64,000 nt of DNA, taken from the NCBI RefSeq assembly GCF_037042905.1, contig NC_087251.1:49353358-49417357 (forward strand). Reading direction: 5' to 3'. The notes beneath the pieces were generated by a model. It ran no database searches. It was not told where the DNA came from and saw only the letters and a list, made by a program, of their open reading frames with translations. A program made the translations under genes and the position numbers. This document shows, in pieces, positions 7,788 to 59,537 of the stretch. Source of the stretch: Lytechinus pictus (taxonomy: Eukaryota). How positions within the stretch are numbered: the first letter of the stretch is position 1; each line of letters opens with the position of its first letter.

Positions 7788-10088
7788 GATCTTATTTGGA
7801 CACTCCCATTGTCAAATAAGTAGGCCCTATTAATGGTGCCATCTGACAATTATATTCTCATATTTCATTTAATTTGATTTGAGATGAAATTATTTTTTGC
7901 TTTGACTTGAAAGAGAAGTAGAATAATAGAAGCAATAGAGACTAAAAGAGCCTTGCAAGTATGATCTATTTGGCTACATCCATGTATATATTTCTGTTCA
8001 CACCTATCAGATTTGACTCTTAACTGGCTCGGTGAGTAAGAGCACATGATCTGTGACTTAAGACATGCTGTACTTTATGATTAATCTGAATTAGTGGGAT
8101 CAAGCTATTTTGGTATCTAATGTTCCTAAAAGTCTTTAGGAAGTGAGGAATTATAACCTCGGAAATCTCTCATAATCAAGAAGATTTGGGTCGTAAACCG
8201 TTCCCATCTCTCCCCCAAACTACTTCTCGAAGACAACGGCTGTTGATTCGAGAAGGTATTACCATTTTTCATTTACGAATATTTTGAAATCGGAAACAAA
8301 TCATTTTCACTGTGTGAGCCAATTGATTTTCTAGTTCATTGAACCTGTATATCTATGTGATAGGGGATTTGGAGGGATTAGTTTATCCACTCTTTGACGC
8401 ATCAGTATTTATTTAAGTTTACCTTAAGATTTGTTTTCATGTGCGGATGATGATAATAACACTTTAATGGGAAGATTAGAGAAGCCTGATCGTGTTCTTG
8501 TCTTGAAGGCTTAAAATTGAAAATATTGAATTATTTCAAGAGAGCAAGAAATGGTAAAAGACTAATCAAGAGGTGATGATCGTAAGTTTTGGAGGATATT
8601 TCTTCTCAAGAATTCTGTGGATATTTCAGGTTTATTTAGAAATTCTGAATTAATGGTTTTCCATGTAATATTCAATTCCAGACTGTAGGCTTATATTTAT
8701 TTCTTCAGAGTATATATTTCTTATAATTTGTTATTTTATTCGTCTTTTTTTCGGGAGGGGGGGGGGGTTATCCTCAGTTAAGTATCTGTCCCCTTTTCAC
8801 CCCTATACTCTCTTTCCCTCTTTTCTTTATTTTATTTTCATCATTTTCTTTTGATCATTATGATAATATTGATGATGATGCTGATGATGATGATGATGGT
8901 GGTGGTGATGGTGAAGAAAGTTGAATAATTTCAGACAATAATTAAGAAAATACAGATGATGATCTTCTTGGAACGATGATATCACTGATACATTCGTGAT
9001 AAGAAATGAAGAGGTGGAAAGTTAATAAATTTAAGTCCAATTGTGGATGAATCATCAACTGCCAATATGCTGGGCATAGTTATGGTAATGATGATTATAA
9101 TACCCCCGATGCTGATCCTATCTGTCTGATTGCAGCAAAAGAAAAAGCGAAGAATGTTGAAGGAGACATTGGGAGGAGGATGGCAGACGAAGATAACAAA
9201 TGTGATATTCATGATGAAAACAGGAGATGAAGATAACAAAGTCTAAATCAATGATGTGCCAAGAGATGGGATGTTGATGATGGGACGTCAGCGAGGGTAT
9301 CCATGTCGGATAATCATCTCTCCTGCTTGAATGAGTTCCCTGATCTGCTGGTATCCCAAAGACTAGAACCTGATTCTTGGTCCGCCGCCCGGTCGGTTAC
9401 AACAACAGGCCCCGCTTCATGCTCGTAACAGGGCGTTAGAATGAAATGTGTTCACACTTTGGATGAATGACAGAATTTATCATCATTTATTACTAATACA
9501 TTTTTAGATAAAGTGAAAAATTGACACGACTCTAAAATTCATGGTGAGATGATATGTTCCTCCCTTATTCTGTTTGTATAATTTTTAAAACATCTCCCAA
9601 ATATTGATTTGATTTTTAATTAACAGATGGAAAGTGTTTAAAGGAGGAAATGCATTTGAAGAGAACATTAGCAATTGGCTCAATCAATCCATCATCCATA
9701 ACTCTAAGACCTATACATTCAAAGGTACATTACTCTCCATGTTATAAGCAATTGATCCGAAACATAACTTAAGTTGAATCAAGCGAGAACTCAAAACGAC
9801 ATAACATCAGCGTGTGAACGCAGCACGACTGCTGCCAGCCATATGCCAGCTCTACTCTGTGAGGGGCATAACAATCATTAGCATAGTTTGGGATGAGTGG
9901 CGCCTACCAAGCATTTTACCCCATTAATCATCTCTCTGATCTTTCAGCAGACTCTTCTAACCCCATCATGCACCCCTTGCTCCCCTCTTTACCCCTCCAA
10001 CACCCCTCCCCACATATACCACCACCACCAATGAGGAGAAATAGAAGGAATGTGGGGAATATTATGATGGGTGTACACTCTTGATTCT

Positions 10089-10300
10089 AAATTTCAAGGA
10101 TTGAAAATATATCCAGATCGGCTGTGAATAGTGAATGTTCAATTTAGATTTTAACCTTGTGGATTTAAATATAAACGAATAATATCTAAATTCAAATTTT
10201 TTCAGATTTAGAAGTTTGACCTTAAGATTAAAAAGTAATTAAAGTTTTGTTTGGTCACCATTCACAGCCGATCTGGATTTATTTTCAATCCTTAAAATTT
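10089..10300. mobile_element. Hairpin-type MITE remnant
   Basis: Arms of about 45 bp: aatttcaaggattgaaaatatatccagatcggctgtgaatagtga / tcaccattcacagccgatctggatttattttcaatccttaaaatt. A related sequence lies at about 39595-39813. Confidence 0.6.
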
Positions 10301-10832
10301 GTTGTTATAATTGTGACAACACTGGACCTACTATACAATGTATTAATCTAAAGATGACTGAATTATGTCCCTTTTTTAGGATTGTTAAAAAACAAGTTGC
10401 AAAGCTAGAATTGAAAAAATATTGTTTGATTTGTCAGTATCATATGTGGGCTCATTACATAGGCCTACATGTAGTTTGTATGATATCAATAACTGAAAGA
10501 AATCACCTTTTTTTATATAGGCCCTACCAACTAGAGTTTAGAAAATATTTAGGAGTTATACCATTGGTGCTCATTCCCCGAGTGAAATAAAATTCCTCTA
10601 TAAATGTGGAGTATAAGGTCAAAGGTTGCTTCCTTTTGACCTCTCCTCAGCCTTGGCCTCATAAACGTGACCTTTTTGACATCTTTAGATCATACCATTA
10701 TCAAGAGCATTGCAGCGGCATATTTCATTCACTTGGAACTTGCTTCATGAACTCTTGGTGCATATCACAGCAGGACAAGGTTTACAGGTTGCTTTTATTG
10801 TTATGGCCAAGAGGCTCTCACATTGTGTCTTA

Positions 10833-11369
10833 GAGCCTGTTCAGACCGGCAGAGATAGCGCGATCTAGCGCGCGCTAGATCGCGCTATCTCTGCGGTGTG
10901 GAAGGTACAACGTCGTTTCGGTCCGCCCAACAGCGAGCCACGGCGAGCCAAAACGGCGTGCCACTGGAGCACCTCTTGGGGGTGGTCCACGAGAGATAGC
11001 GCGGTCTAGCGCGCGCTAGATCGCGCTATCTCTGCCGGTGTGAACCCGAGCTACGATAGCACGCCGGAAGTCATCTACACGCGGGGAATTTTATACTCAT
11101 TCTATTTTGGTGCGATCTGAATCTGAATCGGTACAACTCAACACTCCTAATTTTATGGAGTAAAACGCGTCGGAACATCGTGAAAATAGAAATATAGTAA
11201 GTAATGCGTCATGGCAACAGGACCTCTCAAAAAAGGGGGTGCTACGATAGACCGCGCTATCTCACTGCGGTGTGAATCCGGCGAATGCCAATGGGCGGAC
11301 CGTGGATCGCGCTACGATAGCGCGATCCACGGTCCGCCCACGGTCCCCCCTTGCGGTGTGAACAGCCTC
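10833..11369. mobile_element. PIF/Harbinger-like MITE, GC-rich, with internal palindromes
   Basis: TTA TSD at 10830-10832 and 11370-11372. TIRs gagcctgttcagaccg / cggtgtgaacagcctc. Confidence 0.85.
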
Positions 11370-11766
11370 TTAGTGTGTTTGTTTTGATTTTCAATATGAA
11401 TTGAATTGAATTTAGTTGATTGATTAAAAACAAAATCAAATAGGCAGTGCACAGGCTGAATATGTTAAATTTACACACAAAAAATAAGAAAACAGTTTTA
11501 TTACACAAAGATATTTGTATAATATTTACAGACAAAAATTAAGATTCTGGAACAATGGTAAAATATAATTGTTACTGTATCCTTTCCAATTTTATTGAAT
11601 GTTCAATCCATTTTGATAAGAAAGAGGGGGAAGAAGGGGGGGACCACAAAAAACCAAGTACATCATGCGCATGCAATAGGCCTACAACAGCTTTGCAGAA
11701 GAATAGCTGGAGAACTCATGTATGATTTCTCATTATAAAAACAAACAAAAGAACATATTACACTAA

Positions 11767-12631
11767 GGCTGCGTTTATGCGACCTTGTGCCAGAATCATG
11801 ATTCAAAACACAAACATGAACCACAATACCGCAGAATCACGACTTTCATTCCAAAGTTGTTTCTCCTCAGATTTGGACCGATCCAGTGCACATCACAGTG
11901 TGCAGTTTGACTCAGGAAGTATAGGTCAACTTTCTCTCGCATGTTCTAACTTTATGTCGGCTGCATAGAGGTATACCTCTATGGCCCGAGCTGCTATCTT
12001 TTGCATGCTATGTACAACGCAGCTCAATCGCATAGTTGTTTGTGCCACATTTGCTCGGCTCTCGAAAAATCAATCTTTTGCTTCCAGAATTTGGTTTATA
12101 ATACCTCATTTTGTTTTTGTATACTTATATTCGATCTTGTTGGTTTATCGAAAATGGTTTTCAGAAATGAATTTCAGCGTACATCCAATTTAATATTGGC
12201 ACTTCTAACTCAATTCAACAACAGCTGAGCTCATTGTCTGTCCGGTTAGTTTCTTTCCTAAACTTGAAGTTGAAGCAATGACCCCAAAAAAAGAGAAAAG
12301 CAGCGGACGATGCGATGATAAACACAAAACTTAAAGTTAAATGCACGTGACAAGAAATGCATGCATAGCATATGCACATACACTGAGCATAGCGCGCCTT
12401 GAGCTTGGCATGGCAAGAGTCAAATCAGAAGTAGCTCGACACAATGACATCCAGAATCATGATTCAAATCACAATTACGTTTATACAACAATTTTCGTTG
12501 GTGATTCCACAGAAACGTCTTTCCAAGCACTCCCTTTTCTGTGTGTCATGTTTGCGATTTGAAAGACGTTTATTTTCACTTTTGATTCAGATCTTGATTC
12601 TAGGGTAAAAAAGTGGCGCATAAACACACCC
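11767..12631. mobile_element. PIF/Harbinger-like non-autonomous DNA transposon
   Basis: TAA TSD on both sides. TIRs ggctgcgtttatgcg / cgcataaacacaccc. Subterminal cagaatcatgattcaaa repeats. Confidence 0.8.
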
Positions 12632-15600
12632 TAAAAATGCAATGAAAGAAAATTTTGGGTGGGGGTGTTTGCTAGAACTTGAAATTATTTCAGAGTAAAA
12701 TACAAAAATGAGTAAGCTGCATATTCCATGACATAACAGAGTGGAAATTCACATTACCAAAGTCATAGGAAAATCTGAGTAATTATAAGGGAATTTCAAA
12801 GGAAAGAAGAGGAATTAGCCTAAGTAACTTTCATGATGAAGACAATAGCTTCTTGATGCACTATGTTGGAAGGGGGATGGTAACATTATATATCATGGGT
12901 TGAAAAGAGTTGTGAGTGGAGCGCAAGGGGACTTAACGCTGTCATGACATCCAATGCTATTCCTAGAGTTTCTGCATCCTTCTTCCGAGCCCTCATGGTA
13001 ATCCAACCATCACTTGGAAGACACCATACACCGTCAAGATTTAGAAATGTCTCAGCAATCAAAACTTTAGAAATTCATGTTTAGGAATGGATTTGAGCAT
13101 CTGATAGTGAAGTAGAGAGGAAAAGAATCACTTATTCTGTGTCAAGATAGAAAAAAAAGTTTGATCCCAGACTTGCCGTGTCCTGAAATGGTTAGAATGC
13201 AGAGAAGTGACAAGCAGCTTGGTGTTGGATGGTCGGGAAAAGGCCATGCCTTATTCATGGCGGAATTATGGAGTTACCGCCGCCACGTAATTCAGTATTT
13301 TCAAAGGTCTTTGGTGCTAAGGCGAGCCCTGTGTCGCGTTGCAAACACAGAACTTGAATTACCCCCCTGTGTTATCGCTTGTTCATGCAAATGAGGAAGC
13401 GTTGAATATTCATGGTTTGGGCTAGATTTTCGGGATTGACAGGAAGCCGGCCAGGGGTGAATGTTGTCCCCGGAGAATGGTTGGGGGGGTATGCCGGCGG
13501 GGGAAATGAAGCAATAACAGTTCAAAAAGCCACAGATGTCGGGGAGGAAATGGACACAGGTTGATCAAGTTCAAGTTCAAGTTTAGGCCCTCTCTTGACA
13601 GCTGGATGAAGTAGAGGGGAAAGACAGGAGAAAAAAGGCATTAGCATGTTAAATGGTTAATCAAGTTGGTTCACCCTTTCATCTTTTTACCCTTTTCAAA
13701 TGAAATTCTAAAGAAAAAAATAATATCTTGTGCCACTTTGCATCCTTTAGAACTTTATCTAGCTTTGTCGAAAATGAAGTTGTTTGATTATGAATCAATA
13801 TTCATTATGTATGCAATGAAAAGGTTTGTTTATTTCCAATCTCTAGTGGTAGAGTAAAGGAAGTAGTAGTAGAGTAAAGGAATGAACATGAATTAACTTT
13901 GAAACCCTTTTTATATTTCTGATTAATCCTAAAATCTGTCTTCCCTTTGTCAAGACAAAATATATAACATTTCAAATCTCTCATCTCATTCTTTCTCCCT
14001 CTCCCCTTCTCTTTCTTCCTTTCATTTCTCTTTCCATCTTTGTATCTGAACTGAAATCAGCCTCATAGAGATTGAATAGATATTTTTTGATATCCTGTGC
14101 TAGAACTTTGTGATTACAGACAATAATGCAGTATCTCTGTTTTCTAATTTCTCCCTGACTTCTCAGAATAGACAGTGTGACTCAAGCAGACAGATTTGGG
14201 TCATACAAAATCCCTCTGTTCCACCCAAAACTGTTTGACCTACAAATACAGTCCAGTTTCTACCCAGTTGTACAAAAATGCAATACAATTGTTGATGAAA
14301 TTTCAAAATGTGAATTCAACAAAAACATTCACTAAGAACATACAGCTGTATTGTTTTCATAAGGCAGTACTTATTTGAAAACTTTGCTTTTGACAAACAA
14401 AGAGGGATATAGATTTGTTTTCTGTATGTAATGCTTTGGTTAGTGTATTTTATAAATTGAGAGGGTACCTTGAAGTAGGCCTGTGTTAATGCCATTAAAC
14501 TATAATATATTCTTCATTTGGTATAATCACCCCCCTTCATAATTGCTACTGATTTTTTTTGTATTTTCAATAGAACAGGCATAAGCTTATTGATACAGGA
14601 AGACATTCTTAATTTTGATGTTTGTTTTTTTTTGGCTTAAAATAATTCTACACATTTTATCATGAATATTTAATTAGCCAGCTAATGATGTAATCTTGCC
14701 ATTTCTTTTTCAAATTAAATGTTGATTATTTATTTCATTTATCTTTTCTAGGAATGTGAAATTAGGATTGACTGCTTATTTAATGTGTAAGATCATAGTT
14801 GCTACAACTCCTTTCATTACAACTTGAATTATGATAATTTTATGTGTGGAGAATAAATAATATTTGTAAGATTTCATATCATGAAATAAGATAAACAAGA
14901 ATGGGGACATAATGACATATATAGGTCTGCTTCACTCATACTATGCAATATTTACAATTCAAATTCTATTATTTTGGCTTAGATTGCCCATTTGAAATGA
15001 ATTGAGTGAGTGAAAGAAGAAAGAAAAGAAGATGATGAAAGGAAAGAGAGTGGGAGACAGGGATAGGTAAATAGAGGATGTAGAAGAATTCTAAACCTGT
15101 CTGTTTGGTAGCCATCCCAAGATCACATTGAATCCTTATCTCTCTGTCTGTAACTCAATATTTTACTTTGAATTGTTAGCCTTTTGGATCTAGGAAGAAG
15201 ATATGGGTAGTTTATACAGCAAGTGAAATCAACAAACCAGCTTTGTGTGTCTGCCTCTGTGTATATGAGTAGAGCGCAACCCATAATTATTGCTCAAATA
15301 TCTAACAGTTCAGATTTATTGCTTAATTACTAATCATTTGTGATTTAGTGAGCTTCAAGTGGTTTGCACTAGTTATTGGTCATTCAAATATTTTTTTTCC
15401 TTAACAGTTATTAAATTTAGATGAATAGAAATGGAGTAAAAATATCAGGATATATTGAGCTACTTGTCACATTTTTTTAGCGACTTCAGTCAAATCACTG
15501 CTAGCTGTGAATAGGCCTTATGATATCAGGGTCATGCATGACTTTTCTAAAATCCAGATAAATGAAAATTTTCCGGCATCCAGCTGTCCCCAAGATTAGC

Positions 15601-16339
15601 ACAGGTTGGTGGGTATTATGGGTATTGGTAGCCTCCTATCAGGCTTTTATACAATTATTTTCCCCTGGATTCAATGAATGAATGCTTTGCGTTAAAAAAG
15701 GGATAAGTTATTTTCCATGAATTTGCATCATGAATATTTTCATGATTTTTTAAATTTCTGTAATGTAACTTCTAAAGTGCTGTTGGTTGACTAATTCTTT
15801 TTGCTGAAAAAAATTTACCTGATTAAAACTACATTGGATGTTGCATCTATGTCAGTTTACATACATGTATGTATACAAAACTAGAAAAGTCAGAAATTAT
15901 AGGCTTACTTCTTTTATCCATCTATTAATTCATTATAACATCTTACATTTACGACAAAATATTTTTGAATGATGGTTATTCCCTATTTTCATATAATAGT
16001 AATTGCAATATAGGATCTACATGGATGATTTTTCACTGGTTATTTCCATGAATTTATATAAACTTTATGCTATTTTCAGAGACTAGTTGTTTTACTATTC
16101 TTCTACTTTCTCTCTCTCAAAACTCACCTTGGAGTCATATATTCGGCAGCTGAATATCATACTGAGTTTCTGTGACATGATCATTGAGAAATTCCCTGAA
16201 AAGTGTGCAATATCTATTCTGATCTTTGCAGTTTAAAAAAAATGGTAGAGTTTATGTATCCGAAAGAGTCACGTTGTGATGGAGGTCATCAGAATGTGAG
16301 TTCAAAGACATGAATTTGTTGAGATGTGACTTTGAATAT

Positions 16340-16803
16340 GAGGCCGTTCTCATTACGCTTTCTAAAACTAGTTTACTGGAAGCCGATTCAGGAAACCACT
16401 TTGGAAGATCGCTTTGCTAGCGTTCCCACTTGATCACACGAAAGTGATTTTCAAAATCACTTCACGTAAAGCGCTCTTGTTGCTATGGAAACGCTCTCAG
16501 TGGGGTGACACGTTTCGCGCGAAATTCGAAACCGCAGCATAGGCATTCTACACCTGTCGTGTGGAGTAGCGCGCTCAAAATGTGCGAAAATCGCTTCCCG
16601 AAGAACGGTTGTGTCCTCACTTACGCTAAAACCAGTTTAACGAGGCAAAGCGATCTTGAAAACTACATCGCGAGGTGGTTTTCCAAACTGGTTTGGAAGA
16701 TCGCTTCCAAGACCGCTTTGGCCGTTCTCACTACGCGTTAAACTAGTTTCCACTAAACTAGTTTCCATTAAACTAGTTTTAGGAACGTAGTGAGAACAGC
16801 CTC
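16340..16803. mobile_element. Harbinger-like MITE
   Basis: TIRs of about 35 bp (gaggccgttctcattacgctttctaaaactagttta and its near reverse complement). 3-bp TAT duplication. Internal aaactagttt palindromic repeats. Confidence 0.85.
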
Positions 16804-17798
16804 TATCATACCATGATACCCTAGGAGTAGACTTGGTAAATCCATACTGTTTAGATGTTCAAACTTGCACTTAATTGTTTTGTTTTCAATATCAATTTTC
16901 ATTCTACTCTTTGATTGTGAATATTTGCTTTAATATTATTCTCTCATTTGTCTGCATATATTAAAACTGGAGTGAAATTCCCCTTTAACCATTGTTGAGT
17001 TTTAATGTTAGTTTTGCTGCCACTTCCGTCTTCCTGGGTTCTGTGAACATATATGTGTAGAAATACACAGTCAAAATTAAACATAAGAATGTACATCAAA
17101 TGAGTTGCAATTCACAGTCACTCTATCTTTTAAAAGCATAAACCAGTTACTTGTATATTGATTACATGCATTGCAGTATGAGAATTATTCTATGAAAACC
17201 CAATGTCTTCGGCTGGCATCCACTCATTATCGCTTCACCCAGGCCCAAACCCCTCCATCCCCGGAATTACTCCTGATTAATTTCCCGCAGAGTCCCCCGT
17301 TTCGATCACTGTATCGGGTTGCAGGCATGGAAGCCCAATAATCGTCGGGCAGGGCTTGCTGTGAGTTGGAGGCGGACCCGCTGACCCCCCTTCGCCCTGA
17401 CGGGATCGCCCCTGCTGGGGCTGAAATGCCAAGGGGTGAGGGGTGAGGTGGAGGATGCTATAGAGACAGGGAGAAAGGAAGTGAGGGAGGGAGAATGGAA
17501 CGAGGGGGGGGAGGGATAGAGGATGGAAGATCGAGGAATGGACACTCAGGATTTTCTAGAATATGGCCAAATGTGTACGTTGCTTTCAAAGTTTTGTTTA
17601 AATTACCTTCAATACTTTAATTCTTGTAAATACTATAAACTTGCCTTAACCGCAGTGCCCATTTGATGAAGAATTGTATCACTTGCTGAGTAATCAGGAT
17701 GTGGTTGACATATTTCGGTATAAAGAGTGTTGAAGTTTAAATGCTTTAGATTTGTCAATTAAATATATTTTTTCACATTTTTTGTTTTCCACTTGCAG

Positions 17799-17857
17799 GT
17801 TTATCAATGCGAGGAGACGGATAGTACAGCCGATGATCGACCAATCAAATCGAGCAG
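17799..17857 (+). CDS. MEIS: Meis coding exon (homeodomain helix 3 and C-terminal flank)
   Basis: Acceptor ttttccacttgcag, donor g|gtaaat. Completes the split Trp codon (tg+g) and reads (W)FINARRRIVQPMIDQSNRA. 59 bp, phase 2 to 1, in frame with the previous exon across a 14.9-kb intron. Confidence 0.97.
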
Positions 17858-17935
17858 GTAAATCCGCCGTAGTAACTGTATTCAAGTCTCGTCGGCGTAA
17901 GTCATCACCTAGCCTCTCTCCAGGCTCGTCTCCTG
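17858..17935 (+). CDS. MEIS: Probable alternative 5'-splice-site extension of the Meis homeodomain exon (26 aa, basic and Ser/Pro-rich)
   Basis: The frame stays open past the first donor (GKSAVVTVFKSRRRKSSPSLSPGSSP). Two more phase-1 donors follow: c|gtaagt (GT at 17897) and g|gtatgt (GT at 17936). Full read-through stops at TAA ending 17982. Confidence 0.6.
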
Positions 17936-19984
17936 GTATGTTGTGGGCCTCGACCGATCAGGCCATGGTCTGCAGCCAGTAACCAAAATCAAAGAACCAA
18001 CCAAAAAAAGAAAATCAACCAGAATATCTGCAACTGACCTTCCACAGCCCCCTTGATCGACACACCTGAAAATATCCCCCCCCCCTCCCCTTCCCCTCCA
18101 ACCCCAAACTTCACAAATGAATGGGAATAGGGATCTGAACCAGACCAGATTATGCTGTTTGTGCAACCAAATTTGTCTTGCCCGTAGCTCTGTTATTTCC
18201 TGACTTTTTACTTTTTGGTTGAAAATAATAATCAATTTTCACTTTACTTCGTAGTGACCTTAAAGCGACCACAATCAAAGGGGTTTTAATTGGAATTTCT
18301 GAAGAAAAAAAACTCTTGGAAAAAATCAAGGCCTTAAATTGTCTCGAATAGACCAATATTACTGATTATTATAATGACGATCTGTTGTGTAACATGAATG
18401 CCCTGTCAAATTTTCTCAAACACATCACACTTGCAATCATATAATTCAATAGAATTTATTTGGTAAAGGATATGTGATTGATATCCTGGTTTATCACTGT
18501 TTTGTAATTTTGTTACAATAGACAGAGGCAGAATTTATGTTAATGAATCACACTTTTATAAGATAATGACTGAAACCCAGAGCCCTAAATCTCGCTGTTC
18601 TTTTCAGTCTCCCGTGTTAATGATCCCATTTGGAATGCTCCAAGACAAAATGCCCCTCTCCCAAATCTTGCATCAGCAAAAGTGCAGACACCCCTTCCCC
18701 CCCCCCCCCCTCCAATTATTCTATGAATTTGTATGAAAGCAGGTTTTTACTTCACCTCATATTTGGATATGAAATACCCCATGATTTTACCCCAATTTTA
18801 CCATTGCTGGCTGCCCTGGAAAAAATAAATTCTCCACCCAAATTCTTGCATCAGCTGAAATGCGCATCAGCATTTTGGATGGTGCTCCTGGCAACGGTGA
18901 TGATGATGATGACAGCATGCTGCTCAAGACATTCATAAAGATTTTATGTTATGTTGAAATATGTTTTGTGAGAATTCTACACAAAGATTTATTGTTATCG
19001 ATAGGATGTTTAAACCTGGTATGTCAAAGTTTCTAAAAATTTTGGGACAGCTGGGAAAAAGCTAGATTTTAGAGTTATGATACAAGCAGCAACCTTTTGT
19101 TTCCTAGGAAGATAATAATTAGGAGGTTGTTTTTAGACAATATTAAGTTGCCACGATTGCCATTTTTCTTAAATACAGCTTTTTCTTAACTGCCCTGAAA
19201 ATGTGTAAATTTGAGATTTTTAATCATGTAGATGTCTGTATCTCCCTAGCGACATTATGCAATGGTAGGAAACCAATATTATCCAAAGTTGTGTTATTAG
19301 AAGGAATATAATACTTTTCATTTGTACATAAAGTAGTTGTGCTCCAATTATTTCAAGATATTCATATTTATTCAAATAAGATGGCTGCACATTATGAAAG
19401 GTAAGGTGAAGAGATCTCAGAGTACGCAGTCAGATAATGCAAGAAGCTCCTTGGATAATGCCTCAAAAATAATTCTAAACTTGATTCCTTTATACCTCAA
19501 ATGAAACATATATTGTATTTCAGCTTGTATTTATTTTAATCACTCACTTTTTGTGTTAAGCCCTTGCAACTATTCATTCATTCATTCGCAAACAAGAGAA
19601 AAAAAACCTTCAATTGAAATTTCATCTGACTTTCAATTTCCAAGAGTATCGCTGCCCAGCCGGAAATCACACCAGTATATTCACACCGGAGAACGCATAA
19701 CAAAAGAGGAGAACAAGCTCCGTCCCACGACAAGAATAGAATTACGTACACAAGACTTGCTCCAGCAATCGTGTAGAATAGAGAGAGCGGACTTTAGCGC
19801 CAATTATGACAAAGCTGTCACTTTTGGTGAATGGCGTAACGAATGAGGGGAATGTCAGGGGGTCAGAATGTAGCGCCACTTCAGTTCAATCTGGAGGCGA
19901 AATTCTCACTTATATGATGAAAACCATCAATCACTACTTGCCTGCCTATTTCATTACAAACTTTGTCTTTTCCTCATTACCCCA

Positions 19985-20600
19985 ATCTCCTTCTCATCTC
20001 CTTTCATCTCCATGACTAGGCCTACAAGCTCTTATTCTCGTCAATGTAGAAAGAAAATATATCAGCCCCCCCCCCCATCTGCTCCTCATCTTATTTCATC
20101 TCCATGGCTAGGCCTACAAGTTCTTATTTTAATCAATGCAGACAAAAAATGATCAGACCACCCCCCCCCCTCCATCTCATTCTCATCTTATTTCATCTCC
20201 ATGACTAGGCCTACAAGTTCTTATCTTAATCAATGCAGACAAAAAATGATCAGACCACCCCCCCCCCCTCCATCTCATTCTCATCTTATTTCATTTCCAT
20301 GGCTATGCCTACACGTTCTTATTTTAATCAATGCAGAGAAAAAATGATCAGACCACCCCCGCCCCTCCATCTCATTCTCATCTTCTTTCATCTCCATGGC
20401 TAGGCCTACAAGTTCTTATTTAATCAATGCAGGGAAAAAAATGATCAGACCCCCTGCCCCATCTCCATATCTTCTTTCATATATATGACTGGAACTACAA
20501 GCTCTTTCTCGTCAGTGCGAACAAATGATCAGACCCCCCATCTCATTATCTTATTTTTTTAAATGCAGAAAAAAATGAACACCAGAACCCCCCCCCCCCC
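19985..20600 (+). repeat. Tandem repeat, about 96-bp unit, about 6 copies
   Basis: The unit catgactaggcctacaagttcttattttaatcaatgcagacaaaaaatgatcagacca(C)n... recurs near 20011, 20103, 20200, 20298, 20395 and 20485. Confidence 0.9.
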
Positions 20601-22174
20601 CGATCTACATCCTACCATGTTTCTTACTATTTCTTTATAAAAGTGGGAGTGTATGGATTAATTGTTTTCCCCTAAAGTGGGATTAGGCCTCCTAGCAATT
20701 TTGACAATTTCACTTGAGCCGTTAATGTTTTCAAGTACTGAAAGAGAAGCCACATTTTTGGAGAGTGAAACAAATAGTATGAGTAATGCCTGGCGCTTGG
20801 CTTGTTTTGATACTAAAAATCATATATTTTCAACATTTGTGCTCATGGTGATATTGCTCAATTGTATGGAATTTCTTGGTAATGTTATTGAATTGAATGG
20901 TATGTTTTTAATTTGTAAGTCTGTTAGTCTGTTTTTGTTTATTTTTCATAAGTCTGTAACCAAAATATGTTGGTTAACTTTTGTTCATTTATTATTTTTA
21001 TTTATTCAGAATGACTTTCCTGCATTTAACTCCTTTTTCTATCTAATGAAGGAATAAAGAATATAATTGGAATTTTTTGATTGGCAGAAAAATTATGTTG
21101 CTTAATTCATTTAATTTTGCAGACATATTTTCTAATTATAAGTCCTAGAGATATTACTGTTACTAATGGGCCTTATGGTGGATGGAAAAAATTGTCAAAT
21201 AATCATATTTTAAAGAAAAAAAACAAGATTGCCTCCAAAGTTTTGTAGCTCCATTAATCAAATCAAGAGCTAATTGAGGTATTTTGAATGGAGGCATTTT
21301 GTCTGGGGTTTGGTGGCGGCACAGTCTGGTTCAAAAGGACAAGGCTTACGGATACACATGTTTCTAATCTGTAGCGGGTATGGGAGGGCTTCCACGTACC
21401 GGTAGTATTCATTTGTTGTGTAAACCAGAGTGGATGCGTCACAAATTACCAATAATTATGCATTTAGTTCAATAAATGAAATATGATAGGCAGAAGTAGT
21501 GTGTGGGTTTTTTAAGGGGCGGAGCAGGGGTAATGAGGGTATTGGTGCGTAAAGGGGAGGCCTATATTGTGAAATTGACAATATAGGAGGGGTATAGCAG
21601 AGAATTGGGTCAAATATGCCGTCCACAGAAGGTGAAAATGCTCCAGGAGATAAGTCAGGATTAGATGCTCTTATTAGTATGTGACGGGTGGTGGTGGTGG
21701 AGGGAGGGGAGAAACGGGGGAGGGGTAATGATACAGTAGGCAATGATGGGTAATTATGTGAAAAGTCACCATGTTGCAATGTCAGGATTCAATGGGGAGG
21801 GGTATTGGTATGTAAACTACAATTTGGTAGATTAATGATATAGGTTTTGGGCAACTGGGGCAAATGCATTACTCAGATGATGGGGAACTATGCACTAGCT
21901 GTAGCAAGTTGAATGAAAGAAAATCTGGATTGTGAGTAAGTACTTAAAAATGTTATGGTTGTAGGGGGTTACTGGAATAGGGGAGTGAATGGGATGGGTG
22001 GTGGGTGGATGATAAACTGTTGATAGGATTGGGGGTTGTTAACTCAATCAATGAAATAGTAGATGTTGGTCAATTGTGCTGAATGCTTTGCATCGATACA
22101 GGGGTAGATGATCATAGTCTAGTTCCCTTGCCCAGGGGATTTTTCTCTTTTTTTCTCAGTCTGTGCTCCTTTAA

Positions 22175-22776
22175 AGGTCAAGTCCACCTCAGAAAAATGT
22201 TGATTTTAATAAATAGAGAAAAATCAAACTAGAATAATGCTGAAAACTTCATCAAAATCGGATGTAAAATAAGGAAGTTATGACATTTTAAAATTTCGCT
22301 TATTTTTCACAAAACAATTATATGCACAACTCAATGACATGCAAATGAGAGAGTTGATGATGTCCCTTACTCACTTTTTCTTTTGTTTTTTATTGTTTGA
22401 AATATAGAATATTTCAATTTTTACAGATTTGACAATAAGGACCAACTTGACTGAACCATAAAATGTTAAGGCGATGGTAATTCCACATATCAGGGAGGAA
22501 TGAAACTTTGTTTCAAGGACAATGAGGAGAAAATGGGAATAAACCATTTTTCAGATAATGAAATACAAAAGAAATAGTGAGTGAGTGATGTCATCAGTCC
22601 CCTCATTTGCATACCGACCAGGATGTGCATAGAACTGTTTTGTGAAATTAAGCAAAACTTTAAATGTCATATCTTTCTTATTTTACATCTGATTTTGATG
22701 AAATTTTCAGTGTTATGCTCGTTGGATTTTTCTCTTTTTATTCAAATCAACTTTTTGTTGGGGATGGACTTGTCCT
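22175..22776 (+). mobile_element. Kolobok-like non-autonomous DNA transposon
   Basis: TTAA TSD, AGG...CCT termini, long imperfect TIRs. An inverted homologous copy lies at 60637-61234. Confidence 0.85.
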
Positions 22777-24309
22777 TTAAAGATCACCTATCAATGATTC
22801 TCCTAAAACTCCACTCTGAAGAGAGTGTTGAAATTTAGCTTTTTATGGTATTAGTTAGAAGTCAGTTTAGGAGTGGCATTGTTTTCGCTACCAAAAACTG
22901 ATAGAACTTTAAAAATGAAATCAAAAGAGAAATTACTTAATTTAATAAAAAATGAAAAATATATGTCCACGTAGCCATAGAAAATAAATGTATGGCTGAA
23001 TAGTTTAAAGAAAAAAGGCAGAATTTATGAGTTATTGAAGGTCAAGTAGACGTTGGATGTGAATGAATCTTTTAAAGCCCAACGATTCCTTTCTTCTTTT
23101 ACAAAAAAAAATATTCAATTTCTTTCAAATCTGGCATCAAAACGAAGAAGAGAACTCGAAACCCTGTTCTCTGTGTCTCTACAGACTTGGGGTGTCCTTG
23201 GATTGGGTTTAATTTTATTGGATGAGATAATTAAAGGTGGAGACACTCATCTTCGAGTCACATCCTGACCGACCCACTTGTCCACCGGCTAACCCTGCCC
23301 CCAAAGAACCCAGAACTGACAGCTACGTCAAACTACGCTCACGCTAATTTGTCCGATAGCATAAACAGGTTCACTATGAGATGCGCCTGCCAAATGGGGA
23401 GGAATGAAAAAAGATGGAGAGAGAGAGAGAAAAAAACAAATAAGATGAATTTCATTACAAGGATTTGATGATTGTATTTTTATGAAAAGACAGTTAGGTA
23501 TAAAAATAACAGAGAAATGTTTTTTGTGTATGTCTTTAGTGAATTGGATGTGGTGAAGAAGAACCATGAATCGGTCCTGTGCTCCATCATGGATTTCTTA
23601 TCTAGGACTGGCTTGCTATTTTTGATCACAGGTGCACCTATAATATTTGCAAAGAAAAACAATCTTTAAGAGGGGAAAATAAGATGATATGAAATCATAG
23701 ACAGAAAATTCTTTGAAGTAGGGATAGATATTTTAAAAAAAATTAATCAATCTTTTGGAGTTTTTTAAGGAAGGGGTTGTTGTATACTTATTATGAGAAT
23801 TGCTTTTTATGGACAGGTTTTTTTTTTTTCATTTTACTAAGAATGCACTTTCTAAAACAGCAATAACCAGATAATCTAGAATTAAGTTCACCTTTATTCA
23901 ATATTTCTTAAAAATATATTCTATAAAGACTGAAAATGATAATCCATCAACATAACCCTTTTTTTAGGAAGGGGTTGTAGTATACTTTTCAACTGTTCAA
24001 TAATAAGGTTTTATTCAATCTTTTTTCAAGATATATTTTTTTCAGAAACTAAAAAAAGAAAGATACTTCATCATCATAGGCCCTATATTAAGTCGTCAAA
24101 CAAGGTTTCGGCCAGGGGTCTTTGTTTTTCCATATTTGATACCCATATACATGACAAGTCCATCTTATGGGCAATATAAGAAATTTTCATCATGCCACAG
24201 TTTTTTTAAATACAAAGATCTAAGAGATTAAAATTAGATGTCAAATGCATATAGGCCAACATAATTTTATCTATGTATACGGTAAATGCATACTTTTTAT
24301 ACCCCTATA

Positions 24310-24631
24310 GGTCTGTTTTCTGAAGTCGGGTTTAACCTAGACCACAGTCTAACTCTGTGCTGAAATTGTAGGGAGCCAAAAATTCAAAAAACCTGTTTAT
24401 ATTGTATATTTCTTGTGTTTACTATTTTGTTTCCTTTTGCTTTCATAATGAAGAAAAATACTTCAAATCACTTCTGTTATCATTCCCAAACAATTATGAA
24501 CAATTTGAGTATCAAAAGAGTTAATAAATTGGGTGTGTACTGTTAGGGATTTGTACCCCAATTGGCTCAGCATAGTTAAACCACAACTTTAAACCAGGGT
24601 TTAATTTAAACCCGATTTCAGAGTACGGGCC
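24310..24631. mobile_element. MITE with GG...CC termini flanked by TA
   Basis: ggtctgttttctgaagtcggggtttaa pairs with ttaaacccgatttcagagtacgggcc. Confidence 0.7.
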
Positions 24632-24853
24632 TAAAATGAGCTAAACTTAGATCTTTACTTTTTGAATGAATGTGCTAACAATGACAGAGAAACAAACATT
24701 ACTTGATCATGGGTTTAAAACTAGATATTCTGATTTGGAAACGTGGCTAAAAGAAACACATCCCTCCCATCAGATACAATGTTGTTTTGCATTCACATCT
24801 TAAATCTCCTTGAGAAAGGAGCCTGGCATCCTGAACCTTGGTAATGTTTAGAA

Positions 24854-24902
24854 GGGTCATCTTAGGTCATGTAGGGTCATTTGAGGTCATGTCAAGGGGT
24901 CA
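24854..24902 (+). promoter_or_regulatory. Array of RGGTCA half-sites with 4-nt spacers (DR4-like)
   Basis: GGGTCA-tctt-AGGTCA-tgta-GGGTCA-tttg-AGGTCA, plus a fifth half-site 7 nt later. Function unproven. Confidence 0.35.
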
Positions 24903-25109
24903 CTGAGATAGTGCCTTTCTCTGCAAGAAAATGGGTGCTCTGATTATTTTTCGAAGGCAATGCTGAAAATATTTGGAGAATCCCCTTTGGGTATAAACAT
25001 TTGACTCTCTTTCTCTCTCTCTCTCTATTACCCTCCCACAGCTTTCTCTTGCTCTTATCCTCTCTCTCTCTCTCTCTCTGTATCTCCATCTAAGTATCTT
25101 CCCATTTCT

Positions 25110-27482: not shown

Positions 27483-28041
27483 CCCAGGGGAGGGGGGGGG
27501 CACTTACATTGACGAGTGGATACCATGCGCGACCAAAAAAAACACGTAAAGAGGATGTCTTTTTCAAGATGGGCACGTTACGTACTTAACATAATAAGGG
27601 TGTCAAAAACACAAAAATAATGAAAAATGGTATCTATTTTTGCTAGGAAGGCTACGTGTTTAGGGTCAAATTTGCGAGGGTTTAAAAAATTAAGACTAAA
27701 TGTTTTATAAAGGATGTACTCTTTGCCCCAAGAGTCAACACTACGTGTTAAAAGTACGATTTGCGCGAGGTGTGGCTGTACTAAATCTAATGATGTAGGT
27801 ATCGGTAAAACCGACGACCGACGACCGTGACATAACAATTGAAATATTGTTGTACTTGTTTAGGGGTTTGATTCATGGAATACTTGCCAATAGTATCGTT
27901 TTGTTTCTAATAATTGTTAAGGGTGGGGTTCACACGCCAATACTTGTTAAGAGGTGCATTTTCAGAATATGGAAAATATGTGTTTAGGGTGCTTTTCGAG
28001 ACCCCATGGTCGCGCTCATCAATGGAAGTGGCCCCTTCGGG
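27483..28041. mobile_element. MITE with CCC...GGG termini and 2-bp (AA) flanks
   Basis: ccc-aggggag(G)n-cacttacattgacgag pairs with ctcatcaatggaagtggccccttcggg. Internal catgcgcgacca / tggtcgcgc inverted match. Confidence 0.7.
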
Positions 28042-28775
28042 AAAAATATATAACATTTATTTGGTTTTTTATCACATTATATAAGAAATCAAAATATCAA
28101 CATATTGAGCGATTGTATTGGAAATCGTCAAAGAACATCAAATTCCATGCATTATGATTGATTGTTTTATACACAAAACAAGATATTGTACTCTATAAAA
28201 CTTGAAAGGAAATACATATAATCCAAGACTGGAAGCTATTCCACAGTGCTGTTTGTCATATTGGCTTGATGGGGAAGCCCACGTTCCATTCATTCACCTG
28301 TCAACCCAATGTCAAGGTTACCCCCAGTCCCACATACTGGCATTTCCTGTTGGATCAGTTGCTTAGCTGCTGTACCAGGGGGGGCTAACCTGTAGTCCCA
28401 CACATTACCGTTTCCTGTACCATGTTATATCTTACTTAGCGTGTCTGCGGTTGCCGGTTGTTGCCTCGCGGAGTTCCGTTTGTTTACATGAAGTGAGGCT
28501 ATAGCTGTTGGGTCCCATCATGCTTCTGTTACATGGCAAATAAGATAAACTGTTTTTGTGTCGTTTGTGATAGAGATTGCCCTCAACTGCCCATTTCCTG
28601 CCCATCGAGGTTACTAATAGTGGTTTGACCCCGACCTCTATGTCATTGTCAGAAATATGAATCTGGTATGACTCTGCAATATTGAAAGAACTAGTGTGAA
28701 AGTTTGGAATGGTTATCTTTATACTAGCATTTAACATCAGATCCCTCATTTTTGTCTCACCTGCATAGCAGAGTG

Positions 28776-29667
28776 GAGCCTCTTGTCGAGGCCCTGGCGG
28801 CTGCTTCCCGAGCGAAGCGAGCGATATAGCGAAGTGCAGCGAGCCAGGGCCTCTTGACATCTGAGCCGAATTTCACCGACTTCCATTTGTTTTTACCAAT
28901 ATTCCGACCAAAAACTGGTCGGTGAAAATCATTCAATGAGAACGCGGGATGCTATGACGTCATATTGAATATTCATGAGCTCATCTTGAATGGCGACCCG
29001 TTCTTGGCGAAGAGTGATGACGAAATATCAAAGAGCATTGAATATGCCTCTAAAACGCTGAATATATTGACCGATTTAAGGATTTGCAAGTCGATGAAAT
29101 TAAATCTGCACTGAAAGGACAAGATTTTTTTGTAAATCTACCCACAGGAAATGGAAAAAATGTAATCTGTCATGCGATTCCACTATGCGTCGATAATCGA
29201 TCTCTGCGGTGCAGTGAGGGAATGCTGGAGTCGAGTTGTTCGGCCTTGGTGCTTCCCCTTGACTCGAGTCTGACCAGGCCGATCTCCCGGGAAGTTTTGG
29301 GGTGGTGATGGGTCTGTTACGGCTAGTAGTAGTAGTAGTAATACCACTACTTGTAGCATTTTGCTGGTTATATCCCCTTTAGTGTCCCGCAATTAAATGA
29401 ATCCCCTGCAGAATAGTGGACTACTAGTATTCCGAACCCCGGACGAAACAACTTCAAGTTTGACATTTCATTAATTTACTAGGTGACCGGTAATATAGTC
29501 ATGACTCATGTATATTCATTAGGAAGACGCTTCTCATGAATATATAATTCGGCTCAGATGTCAAGAGGCCCTGGCTCGCTGTGCTCGCTAGGCCTAATTC
29601 GCTTTGCGAATTAGGACATCCCTCGCTTCGCTCGGGAAGCAGCCGCCAGGGCCTCGACAAGAGGCTA
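28776..29667 (+). mobile_element. Non-autonomous AcademH-like DNA transposon
   Basis: TIRs of about 95-120 bp ((g)agcctcttgtcgaggccctggcggctgcttcccgagcgaagcgag... / ...gaggcta), 9-bp TSD agcagagtg (28767-28775 and 29668-29676), internal RecQ-like helicase fragment. Confidence 0.8.
28990..29271 (+). pseudogene. Frameshifted N-terminal remnant of a RecQ-like superfamily-2 helicase inside the transposon
   Basis: IDRFKDLQVDEIKSALKGQDFFVNLPTGNGKNVICHAIP resembles the RecQ Q-motif plus Walker A (LPTGxGKS), followed by a degenerate motif Ia (SALVLPL). The upstream ATGGCG is out of frame. Confidence 0.75.
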
Positions 29668-31011
29668 AGCAGAGTGAGACTATAGGCGCCGCTTTTCCGA
29701 CGGCGGCGGCTGCTGCGTCAACACCAAATTTTAACCGAAGGTTAAGTTTTTGAAATGACAGCATAATCTAGAAAGTAAATGGACCTAGTTCATGAAACTT
29801 GGCCATAAGGTTATAATCAAGTATTACTGAACATCCTGCCTGAGTTTTAGGTCACATGACCAAGGTCAAAGGTTATTCAGGGTCAATGAACTTAGACCAT
29901 GTTGGGGGAATCAACATCAAAATCTTAACCTAAGGTTAAGTTTTTGAAATGTCATCATAACTGTACATCCTGCCTGAGTTTCAAGTCACATGACCAAGGT
30001 CAAAGGTCATTTAGGGTCAATGAACTTTGGCCAAATTTGGGTATCTGCTGAATTACCATCATAACTTTGAAAGTTTATGGATCTGATTCATGAAACTTGG
30101 ACATAAGAGTAATCAAGTATCACTGAACATCCTGTGTGAGTTTCAGGTCACATGACCAAGGTCAAAGGTCATTTAAGGTCAATGAACAGTGACCATGTTG
30201 GGGGTATGTGTTGAATTACCATCATACATGTATCTCTGTAGGTGTGTGTATTGGTCTAGTTCATAAAACGTGGACATAAGAATAACCAAGTATCACTGAA
30301 CATCTTGTGCGAGTTTCAGGTCACATGACCAAGGTCAAAGGTCAATGGACTTTGGCCATGTTGGGGGTATTTGTTGAATTACCATCATAACTCTGTAAGT
30401 ATATTGGTCTAGTTCATAAAACTTGGACATAAAACTAAGAGTCATCAAGTATCACTGAACATCTCATGTGAGTTTCAGGTTGCAAGGTCATTTAAGGTAT
30501 TGAACTTTGGCCATTTTAGAGGTAATTATTAGATTGCTGTCATAACTTTCAAAGTTTATAGATATAGTGTATAAAATGTGGATATAGGGTTAATCAAGTT
30601 TTAGGTCACATGATCAAGGTCAAATGTCAATGAACGTAGTATTGTATCATTATATGAAAGGTGTGTTTTGTGAATAATTATTTTAAAGTAGTTTTCAAAG
30701 TCAGCACTGCTGCTATATTGAATCCTGTGGTGCAGGTGAGACAGCCAGAGGCATTCCACTTGTTTTTCATTCTATTCCAATGTGCTTCTGAATTCAAGGT
30801 TATGTTCATGCCATTAAGATTTGGCATGCAGAACATGGTTTTAAGTTTGCAAAGGAGAAAACAGGAAAGTGCTTATTAATATCAAAATTCATTATCATTC
30901 CTGGAGTTTATATGGCTATGAAGCTTCTCTAGAACAAGATTGTAAATTTTACTTCATATTCATGCTTTTCCTTAACATTTTCCTCGTTCTCTCTTTCCCT
31001 TTCTCATGCAG

Positions 31012-34000
31012 AATATAAAACAAGCAGCTCTCTATGATTGGACGCAGAGGGCCGTCATGTGATTTGGATGGCCTTCACTGATTGGCTGAGCTGCACTTCA
31101 TTTCAACTCTACCTCTCTACTGCATATCTCCCCCATCCCCTCTACATACACTGTGATAGTCTAACGCACTGTCATATTCTTGGTCGCTACTGGCAGTGGT
31201 AATCACCCTCAGCACCCTTTCTTCGTTGTCAATAAAAGGAGATAGACTTCCTCTTGATGATATCTTCAAAGACTCCTAGAATTCCAGATGATACCTATTC
31301 CTAGATGCAACTGCAATCATGACCTGATGACCTCAAAGTCACAATAGGTGTCAGGAAAATGGCCATCATTGAAGATGAAACTGACCCTCTTTGGTGCTCG
31401 GAATTGGACTCACAGAGCAAGAGCCATGAGCAAAAGATGTCAGCTGCGGTTATTGCAGATGTTCCGGCATCAGGAGACCAGCCATCGACATGTGTTTTGT
31501 TAGAGTTTTAACAAGGACACTCTGGAAGTGGTCTTTGGTCAGGGTATCAGTCTCATGTTAATGATGTCAACCAGAAGATGCAGAAACAACAGTTTCAGAA
31601 AACATATCATCCTTTGGACGTTCTTGCAGTGGTCTTTTGGTCAAGGTATCTTTCTGATGTTGATGACAAACAGAGAAGGCAGAGACTGCAGCTTCTTTCA
31701 CAAAATAGATCATGTGGACGTTCTGACAGCAGCCTCATGGTCAGGGTATCTCTCAGACCTGGATACCAACCAGAAGAGGCAGAGACAGCAGTTTATTTCA
31801 GAAAATGATCTCTCCCATGGTACAAAGAAATGTCTGAGATTCACTCAGACTCCTCACTGGTTGTAATGGTCCTTCTTCTCTCCAGAAACCTCTCTTGAAG
31901 ACATTGGCATATCTATTATGGCCATGCCAAATCTGTCTGTTTCCAGCAACATAAATCACTAATTGACCGTTATGGATGTGTACCAGTATTTGTGTTACAG
32001 TGTAGCATGTTACAGAAGCAAATCATTCAAAGAAAAATTCCAACATCCCAAAAGAGGTTTCCAAGAAAACAGAGCTTGATCTATCCCCCTAATCCACCAG
32101 TTGTATTGTACATATGTAAATCAGACTGGATTGAATTTGAACTTTAAAAAAATCCTTAATTACATTGATAGCCGATTAAGTATGAAAAGGAGGTTTTAAA
32201 ATGAAATCACTGTGCCAAATACTTGTGGAATGCAAAAGAAAATACCAAAATTATATATTTGTGAAATCTGTGGAGTAGTATGAAAATCTCATTACAGAGA
32301 TAAACAGGAAAAGCATAGGTCTAACTGCCACTAGTTATATATTATACATAGAATTGTATAGTGCAAACGTGGGCACACCGATTTCAAGTTAGACTGAATC
32401 CTTGGTAGATTTAATAGAAAAATGGTCAACATTTTGTCATAGTTTGTCTCAAAGTGTCTTGAAATTATGATCAACACTGAATTTTGTTTATTCCTTCTGG
32501 TTTTTAAGTATTACTTTGAATTTTCAAAACACTGTTGATTCTTCATAATGTGCTGCATTCTCTAGCTACTTTCAATGTGATGTTCCATTGCCAGTGAGTG
32601 CTTCAGATATTGATTTTAAAATGAGTGCTTAAGTAATTGATTTAAAATCATAAAAATAGGCAAAGAACCTTTGTTTTATAGATAGAAACAATATAGCTGA
32701 CATACAGCAATGATACAAAGCCTGAAATTAATTCCAGGGTCCAGTACTGGCACAAAGGTTTGCCATGGATTGCAAAATATGAAAGAGGAATTCTGATTGG
32801 TTCCTGGTCACTGTCATGATATAAATGTGTTCCCAACAGTGATCCTGATTGGCTATTGTTGTTAGACTATTCATTGCATACCTTTATGTTATTACATGGA
32901 GCCCAGATACTTTTGTCCAGTGATGTTGTGTTCTTTGTTAACTGTAGTCAGGTTCTTTGTGGGGATAGGGATGGAGACTTGGGGAGTGTTTCAAGAAGCA
33001 AATAGTCACTGACTACCGTTATAAGCTACTGAAATCCTTGCATCTGATTGGCTGAGTGCAAATTAGTCAGTGGAAATCACTGGCGAAATCTCTTCATGAA
33101 ATACTCCCTTGGGGAGTATTCCTTGAAGCATCTTTTCATTAATTTTTCACTAACTTGCTCTGAGCCAATCAGATGCAAGGATATCAGTAGCTTATAACAA
33201 AAAATCAGTGAATATCACTGACTATATGTTTAATGAAAATGCTCTCCAAATTAAAGGTCACTGGTATCCATTTTTGTGTGTGTGTGCTTCTTTTTTTATG
33301 AGATATTGGTAAAGCCACTCTTGGCTATATGCGATGTTGTAATGCAACAATACGTTATTTAAGTGACAGGTTTTTATAATTAAAGGTTTGTTGAAAATGT
33401 AATCAATTATCTTGGGATTAAGGATGATTTGGTCTTGAGTTTCTAATAGTCCCCCACCTCCACACTTTTATTAAAAATTTTCTTTTAGTGGCCAGTGATA
33501 TTATCAGGCAGGTCTTATTCTCTCTCATTTATATTCAATTTTTTTTCTTCAAATTTTACTGCTCTGTTTCCATTCAGTTTTATTTTTCATAGGGCATGAA
33601 AATGTATTTCCCAATCTTTATATTACATTTTATGAGTGTCCTAGTTGTTTTGCGGTATAGCTATCTTTCCCATCCCTATTTATGTATTTTGTTTGAAAAA
33701 TACAAAGGCTGAAACCGTAATACTCAGAGAAAAGATTGAGGAATTCACTGTCACACTTCTATTTATTAATTTTCTCATCATTGTGTACCTAGCACGTGAA
33801 AATGTTTATATTTTAGTCTTTGATATTTAAGTTAAGTTGGGTTTTTCCAAGTTCTTTGAGTATTTCATTAATTTTCCAATTTATAAGCAATCATTTCTTT
33901 CTCTCTATATCATGTCTCATCTCTTACGTACACCAAGCACAATTGGGCCTCTTTCATGAAATGTGTTGTAAAATTCTAAAAAAAAGTCCTAAAATTTGTC

Positions 34001-48937: not shown

Positions 48938-49174
48938 TATCAAGAAATCACTTCATGTTTTAACAAATTAGTCTTTAACAAATTGAACAAATCACTCCGA
49001 GACTAGCACAGATATAACTTGCTGTTTCAATTCAGAATGAGAGGGCCTTCTTTACACAAGTCATTGTAGGCTTTGCATTCAGACCCCTTAACTTGAGTGA
49101 AGGGTCTGCACAGCAGACTAAAAGGCAATTCATGGTATCAATCAAGAATATTTGAGAAGAAAAATATCAAACTA

Positions 49175-58896: not shown

Positions 58897-59537
58897 AACA
58901 AGAGTGTTGCTAAGGCGAGCACATATTACGCTTGTCTGTAACGCGGAAAATGAAGCTAATGGTCAAGCAAGAAAAGTGGAAGATGGCAACTTCACCTTTG
59001 ACCTTCTGACCTAACAATCAATATAATTGCTAGGATCTATGCTAGTATCATACGCACCAAATTATATGAGCCTACATGTAGGTTAAGTTAAACTGAAGTT
59101 ATCGCGTTTACAATGACTGCAGAAGGGTAAGATGAAAACAATACATGCCAATGTGACCTTGACCTTTGACCTCTTGACCTCAAAATCAATAGGCTTCCTG
59201 GGATTCATGCTAGTATCATACACACCAAATTATATGAGCCTAAGTTAAGTTAAACTGAAGTTATCTTGTTTACAAGGACTGCAGAAGGTAAGATGAAAAC
59301 ATGCCAATGTGACCTTGACCTTTGACTTTTTGACCTCAAAATCAATAGGCTTCCTAAGATCCATGCTAGTATCATACACACCAAATCATATGAGCCTAGC
59401 CTGCCTAGGTTAAGTTAAACTGAAGTTATCGCGTTTACAAGGAAAAGTTAACAGACGGACAGATAGACAGACAAACGAACGGACGAACACCGGGGTGATA
59501 CCTAATACGTCTCGTCGAGACGAGCGTATTATAAAAA
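58897..59537 (-). mobile_element. Second HINE/DINE-1-like family
   Basis: Minus strand: 5' hairpin aatacgctcgtctcgacgagacgtatt, GTCY-like microsatellite, tandem repeats of about 160 bp, 3' subTIR agacaagcgtaat and cttgtt end. Confidence 0.7.

Follow-up and report, generated by a model that had tools for sequence, protein, structure and literature searches.

An 892-bp insertion at positions 28776-29667 of the window, that is, of the whole 64,000-nucleotide stretch of DNA analysed here, is best explained as a non-autonomous AcademH-type element that landed by chance in the 5' hairpin of a HINE repeat, a reading to which we assign a probability of roughly 0.86. The first-pass annotation took the element for an AcademH derivative with an internal deletion, and there is good support for this, as the clade of its helicase remnant, its 9-bp TSD, its TAG...CTA-type ends, the position of its start codon and the end architecture that it shares with relatives all agree. 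The AcademH kind of transposon is already known, and the family described here is a new non-autonomous family of that kind; as it stands, the locus represents an ordinary nested insertion and one more such family.

TAG...CTA ends are ascribed to AcademH, and the window element has CTA at its right end and, at its left end, GAG, one change off and also found in one relative (L031). The AcademH lineage of the Academ superfamily is credited to Kojima 2020 (Mob DNA 11:15) by PMC10045372 and PMC10799480; it makes TSDs of 9 or 10 bp as compared to the 3-4 bp of AcademX (PMC10045372), and RecQ in Academ is mentioned in PMC3627910. The accessible portions of PMC10799480, PMC5751038, PMC12210899 and PMC9783078 hold no further defining AcademH features. 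The window element is like AcademH in its RecQ-like helicase, which belongs to a transposon-borne clade (support 100/99), in its exact 9-bp TSD, for which the empty site was seen, and in its long TIRs. It is unlike AcademH in that this copy is 892 bp long, non-coding and free of a transposase, starts with GAG and has TIRs that are unequal by 25 bp; a convergent DDE-like gene and TAG...CTA ends are seen in its relatives.

Boundaries, terminal repeats and empty site

The element starts with GAGCC, ends with GGCTA and lies between exact copies of the 9-bp TSD AGCAGAGTG at 28767-28775 and 29668-29676. The boundaries, the length, the long TIRs and the 9-mer claimed earlier were all reproduced, and the empty site said to be present in a second HINE copy was indeed found there, uninterrupted and with the 9-mer once. 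A right boundary at the host's GAGACTA is ruled out because the empty site and the contigs of other copies put the end at 29667. The features of the locus are as follows.

28749-28775, plus strand: 5' end of the host HINE, comprising a T-run, the 5' subTIR (28753-28765) and the larger part of the 5' hairpin; 27/27 identical to 50468-50442
28767-28775, plus strand: left TSD copy; a single copy in the empty site
28776-29667, plus strand: non-autonomous AcademH-type element, 892 bp, assigned from TIRs, TSD, tree and multicopy depth
28776-28872, plus strand: helicase-side TIR, short form; first base G; internal inverted pair from nt 13, span 66 bp
28955-28962, plus strand: CRE-like palindrome TGACGTCA; its sole occurrence in the window
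28990-29462, plus strand: 5' part of a RecQ-like SF2 helicase gene, left as a frameshifted remnant; assigned from homology and tree
29546-29667, minus strand: transposase-side TIR, long form (25 bp longer), ending in CTA; internal inverted pair from nt 13, span 91 bp
29668-29676, plus strand: right TSD copy
29668-30765, plus strand: remainder of the host HINE: a GC-rich hairpin, repeats in tandem (unit about 160-170 bp), the 3' subTIR (30731-30743) and the 3' end
29676-29682, minus strand: host inverted-repeat sequence reading TAGTCTC, the relatives' commonest terminal heptamer
about 49686-50468, minus strand: second HINE copy without the insertion, used as the empty-site control; 5.6% divergence across 626 aligned bases

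Each TIR consists of an outer block of 49 nt (98%; 28777-28825 and 29618-29666) and an inner block of 36 nt (100%; 28837-28872 and 29546-29581), and the right end has 25 bp more spacer between the two than the left, a difference absent from the first-pass annotation. A perfect palindrome at 29594-29616, with a 10-bp stem and a 3-nt loop, makes up most of this extra length. Among 14 relatives the TIRs are symmetric in length in nine, off by 1 bp in one and by 8 bp in another, and truncated on one side in three. We note that the first base of the helicase-side end is G instead of T in two of 14 two-ended elements (the window's at 28776 and L031 at 1223), which could reflect end repair or coincidence. 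Searches for a transposase remnant gave nothing convincing in the element (best E 0.033) or in the window, and Rfam had no matches over 27500-32000.

The helicase remnant and its relatives

The coding remnant comprises a start codon, an N-terminal helix, a Q motif, Walker A, a low-complexity linker and motif Ia, and aligns to its best relatives as three segments in two frames from 29013 to about 29462, including an upstream segment at 29013-29066 and a downstream one at about 29274-29462 that runs through motif Ia in the other frame. Frame changes at 29000 and 29062 coincide with length differences among other copies; another break, near 29220-29275, is unaccounted for by the copy variants shown. 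The first-pass annotation had placed a RecQ-like Q motif and Walker A fragment at 29066-29271, of which the RecQ likeness stands and the limits do not, the remnant extending from 28990 to about 29460. Its further observation that TGACGTCA and ATGGCG precede the fragment was borne out, the two lying at 28955 and 28990. The ATGGCG, 215 bp inside the element end, is best taken as the start codon of the helicase because the relatives mostly start with Met-Ala and align from 29013, while TGACGTCA is possibly a promoter element; its position shows no conservation among 17 relatives.

Against PDB, the single-frame peptide has BLM as its top match (E 1e-4; 41% identity over 41 residues, 26 bits) and RECQ1 as a weaker one, and RECQ4, RECQ5 and WRN are absent from its 15 matches though present in the searched library. 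In a comparison with DEAD/RecQ profiles, which had been put forward as a check, Pfam DEAD matched at E 0.03, under its curated cut-off. A search of 1.84 billion proteins returned 43 at E <= 0.001, two of which (P0004 and P0033) resemble repeat artefacts. The closest of these proteins are short, mostly begin with Met-Ala and score 45-58 bits as compared to at most 26 bits for solved cellular RecQs, such that none of the solved cellular RecQs compared (BLM, WRN, RECQ1/4/5) is closest. When the single peptide was used to look for longer relatives there was one match among 22 candidates, and the helicase profile gave 24 pattern matches and no relatives in viral contigs. Full-length relatives, among them proteins of sea urchins and of a mussel, measure 425-590 aa and are without RQC or HRDC domains.

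For the tree, 55 rows were used and none dropped, with the window peptide entered with X at its frame breaks. The window peptide falls on the non-cellular side with a support of 100/99, together with all nine TIR/TSD-validated helicases, where the cellular set was made up of 16 bacterial-type RecQ and two WRN sequences and held no BLM, RECQ1, RECQ4 or RECQ5. Its own sub-clade of 18 rows (98/96) has no TIR/TSD-validated members. Four sea-urchin proteins named wrn-1-like, RecS or RecQ-like (P0045-P0048) group with the transposon-borne helicases, and since they lie on that side of the tree they are probably mis-annotated transposon genes and not host repair genes. We also observe that the first open frame ends just after the tryptophan of the DExH motif in many relatives (P0018, P0021, P0030, P0043, P0044 and L015 at 5172-5678), which points to a conserved intron position.

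Alternatively, an unrelated MITE with a 9-bp TSD, MULE- or hAT-like, might have captured exon 1 from a RecQ gene of the host. A 9-bp TSD and long TIRs also fit MULEs, the element carries no transposase remnant, and a contest between profiles of the transposon and cellular RecQ sets separates them poorly (40.0 against 35.2 bits, and 28.8 against 28.8 bits with the single-frame peptide). We nevertheless regard such a capture as highly improbable, given the modest identity to BLM, the missing RECQ4, RECQ5 and WRN matches and the short full-length relatives without RQC or HRDC, and given that the ends of the window element score as AcademH ends do, the right and the left ranking 6 and 44 of about 128,000 positions in an end matrix built from 17 relatives only.

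An AcademH derivative is also what the surroundings of the related helicases point to. The survey covered 80 loci, many of them too short to show both ends, and in 15 of these, representing 13 distinct sites (L041, L042 and L044 being counted as one), the helicase lies inside TIRs with an exact 9-bp TSD; L001, L002, L003 and L011 (an inverted pair, no TSD and a constant right flank) and L056 (TIRs and no TSD) were left out of this count. The elements start with TAG at 12 of the 13 sites and at the remaining one, L031, with GAG as in the window, and the termini of L041 (TAGCCT...AGGCTA) are the same as those of the window element. The helicase match starts 109-308 bp inside the end in these relatives, as compared to 215 bp for the start codon in the window. 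A convergent DUF6589 gene is present at 11 of the 13 sites, and two of the 13 are short derivatives (1367 and 2023 bp).

The DUF6589 protein of the relatives is predicted to have an RNase H/DDE-like fold with an insertion domain. In a model of the full-length homologue P0130 (mc91c3f2ccd91; pLDDT 61.8) the best fold match is the P-element transposase (PDB 6P5A; Z 8.2, barely over the common range, rmsd 5.4, 268 aligned, 12% identity); Hermes matches with Z 6.8 (rmsd 5.9, 262 aligned), and other RNase H folds match too. With the transposase model, Foldseek found nothing at E <= 0.001; a profile search against PDB sequences was likewise empty, and the term DUF6589 was not found in the literature searched. 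As a separate observation, residues 1-87 of P0130 match ZAD zinc-finger-associated domains (Z 7.1, rmsd 3.7-5.9, 73-75 aligned). The P element is not known to have an accessory helicase, whereas the AcademH-type relatives carry one.

A RecQ helicase is also encoded by KolobokH, a lineage of the DDE transposon Kolobok with a 4-bp TTAA TSD that, in the accessible part of PMC9587614, is reported only from fungi. KolobokH and the window element are both DDE transposons with a RecQ helicase, but the latter is from an animal, and since its TSD is 9 bp and not TTAA, KolobokH is ruled out.

The internal inverted pair

At each end of the window element a perfect 11-bp inverted pair begins at nt 13 (equalled in 0 of 100 shuffles), and its core resembles that of the largest group of relatives, with matching changes in both arms. 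Across the relatives, the end upstream of the helicase combines a TAG start with an internal inverted pair lying 11-17 bp from the terminus in 18 of 27 evaluable families, as compared to 30 of 432 control windows, where 6 of 33 families had too little flank to be counted and two of the 18 resemble chance. We consider that the pair most likely represents two putative transposase-binding sites; such sites are favoured over a hairpin because uncompensated changes occur in the arms without strand bias. P elements have internal binding sites and a long (8-bp) TSD.

It is possible, though unlikely, that the paired motif is instead a DNA stem-loop formed as the helicase unwinds the ends. The arms vary among families yet remain complementary (CAGACCC, CAGCCGT, CAGACGT and GAGGCCC types), the span ranges from 28 to 91 bp across families and is 66 and 91 bp at the window's two ends, and 19 of 20 ends fold under the shuffle mean, 14 of them with z below -2. 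Inverted binding sites, however, would yield the same covariation. In one group, moreover, the inner arm is constant while changes in the outer arm are uncompensated, and the mismatches (C-T, T-C, A-C and T-G) show no one-strand wobble bias. The pair, common to the ends of this little-studied group and placed about 13 bp inside them, provides a concrete target for research on the role of the helicase in transposition. We did not find the internal inverted pair described in the accessible portions of the Academ literature, the defining AcademH paper aside, and it may be known. An isolated AcademH-type end, with TAG and an internal inverted pair, lies on the minus strand at 49067-49120 and is the top match of the end matrix window-wide; no partner end, TSD or coding remnant for it was found in the window.

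Other copies, the host repeat and the landing site

Four (X1, X2, X6 and X11) of 19 public runs were compared with 28200-31200. In X1, X2 and X6 the depth of the element is 37-183 times, and that of the host HINE 22,000-28,000 times, that of the unique flank, where summed depth is not copy number and these ratios are to be read as orders of magnitude only. The empty junction appears as loose ends at 29667/29668 in 89, 160 and 65 contigs of X1, X2 and X6, respectively. At least three contigs end at 29667-29670 and continue for 141-743 letters without a match to the host body, and as these run into different DNA, other copies sit elsewhere. At least three contigs, in three runs, span the deletion junction, where the helicase stub meets the right end; other copies hence share the deletion, and the element belongs to a multicopy non-autonomous family and is not a one-off deletion. 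In run X11, labelled as another organism (share 0.12), the element is present at low depth and the unique flank is missing.

One X6 contig (28221-28874) joins the unique flank to the element and thereby suggests a second sample with the same insertion, although an assembly artefact along a repeat path is also possible. One X1 contig departs from the element at 29449 into 80 letters without a match, a slight indication that a longer version exists. In contigs from other individuals the unique flank at 28221-28772 carries 21-27 substitutions per 550-650 bp, and polymorphism is thus high.

No autonomous parent with the window's TIRs was found, and the exact 21-nt TIR pattern had no matches in metagenome contigs. 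Presumably such a parent, in the same genome, would carry two convergent genes, one for a RecQ-like helicase that begins about 215 bp inside one TIR, and one for a DDE transposase that runs in from the opposite TIR. A single internal deletion would have removed the transposase and most of the helicase, and the resulting 892-bp form, with both ends intact, might then have spread to at least tens of sites by mobilisation in trans. Of these copies, one would have inserted, by way of a 9-bp staggered cut, in the 5' hairpin of one of some 10^4 HINE copies, most likely by chance.

HINE, DINE-1 and Cg_HINE are non-autonomous Helentrons (Helitron2) whose layout is given in PMC4067079, PMC7492417 and PMC3627910, in the parts of these that are accessible. 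The host is like them in having T-rich ends, 13-bp subTIRs (at 28753 and 30731, with T-runs flanking both copies), a 5' subTIR with a partial inverted repeat forming the 5' hairpin, a 3' subTIR and central tandem repeats of about 160 bp. It is unlike them in that its 3' palindrome is weak, folding no better than shuffles (z 0.0 and 0.39), and in that no microsatellite follows the 5' hairpin; nor was any autonomous partner seen. Helentrons would be expected to insert at TT and to leave no TSD. At the 5' end of the second copy, the 11-pair hairpin and the GC-rich hairpin fold with a z of -4.75, a value reached by 1 of 200 shuffles. Once the element is inserted, the 5' hairpin has -4.2 instead of -9.6 kcal/mol, but the subTIR and 7 of the 11 pairs persist. 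This hairpin is assumed to be important for Helitron2 transposition in the accessible part of PMC3627910, and it is therefore plausible that the insertion lowered the mobility of the host or, as the first-pass annotation had it, immobilised it. The loose-end consensus of the hairpin (28753-28775) has a GAA loop in X1 and X6 and the window's ATA loop in X2, which suggests that it exists in two loop variants. GAA loops of the GCGAAGC type are very stable.

With regard to the landing site, the first-pass annotation had raised the question of structure-directed targeting. The AcademH machinery might, for instance, be drawn to the HINE 5' hairpin as a stem-loop to be opened by the helicase, or by way of TAGTCTC as a mimic of its own ends. 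The window's empty site does fold better than 98.4% of the window background, and TAGTCTC, which occurs as the terminal heptamer in 12 of 17 relative families, adjoins the TSD, the motif being present in only 1.4% of random 29-nt windows; both features, however, were picked after the fact. The empty sites of 13 relatives are no more structured than their flanks (median fold percentile 0.465, lowest 0.06, none below 0.05). AGRCTA occurs within 12 nt of the TSD at two of 13 two-sided sites and in none of 18 one-sided flanks, as compared to about 0.9 expected (background 3.5% per 69 nt), and its geometry at these sites is unlike that in the window; these fold and motif comparisons cover families of other species and not the window element's own. 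Within that family, the contigs of at least three other copies leave the element for non-host DNA, and the host HINE is extremely abundant. Targeting was thus not borne out, and we consider a directed landing improbable.

A landing by chance in a modestly unusual site, selected post hoc, remains the most likely reading. As an illustration, assuming 10,000-25,000 HINEs, 40-150 element copies and a genome of 0.8-1 Gb, a HINE would be hit by one or more copies with a probability of 30-99% and a HINE 5' hairpin with one of only 1-13%, the latter being a point against the chance reading; such hairpins would make up about 0.03-0.1% of the genome. We can nonetheless speculate, with little expectation of being right, that the AcademH transposase knows its own end signal (heptamer and inverted pair) and that the HINE 5' hairpin mimics it, which would offer thousands of preferred sites or decoys and let a cut-and-paste transposon disable a rolling-circle replication signal. 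If such targeting of Helentron ends were true, one class of transposon would attack the replication signal of another.

Two further arrays lie in the window. The one at 54797-58418 repeats a 50-bp unit about 72 times at 93% matches and is strongly G-skewed, and the other, at 58990-59443, consists of 156-bp units with the same core of the ggtcaaaggtca type and is probably another HINE family.
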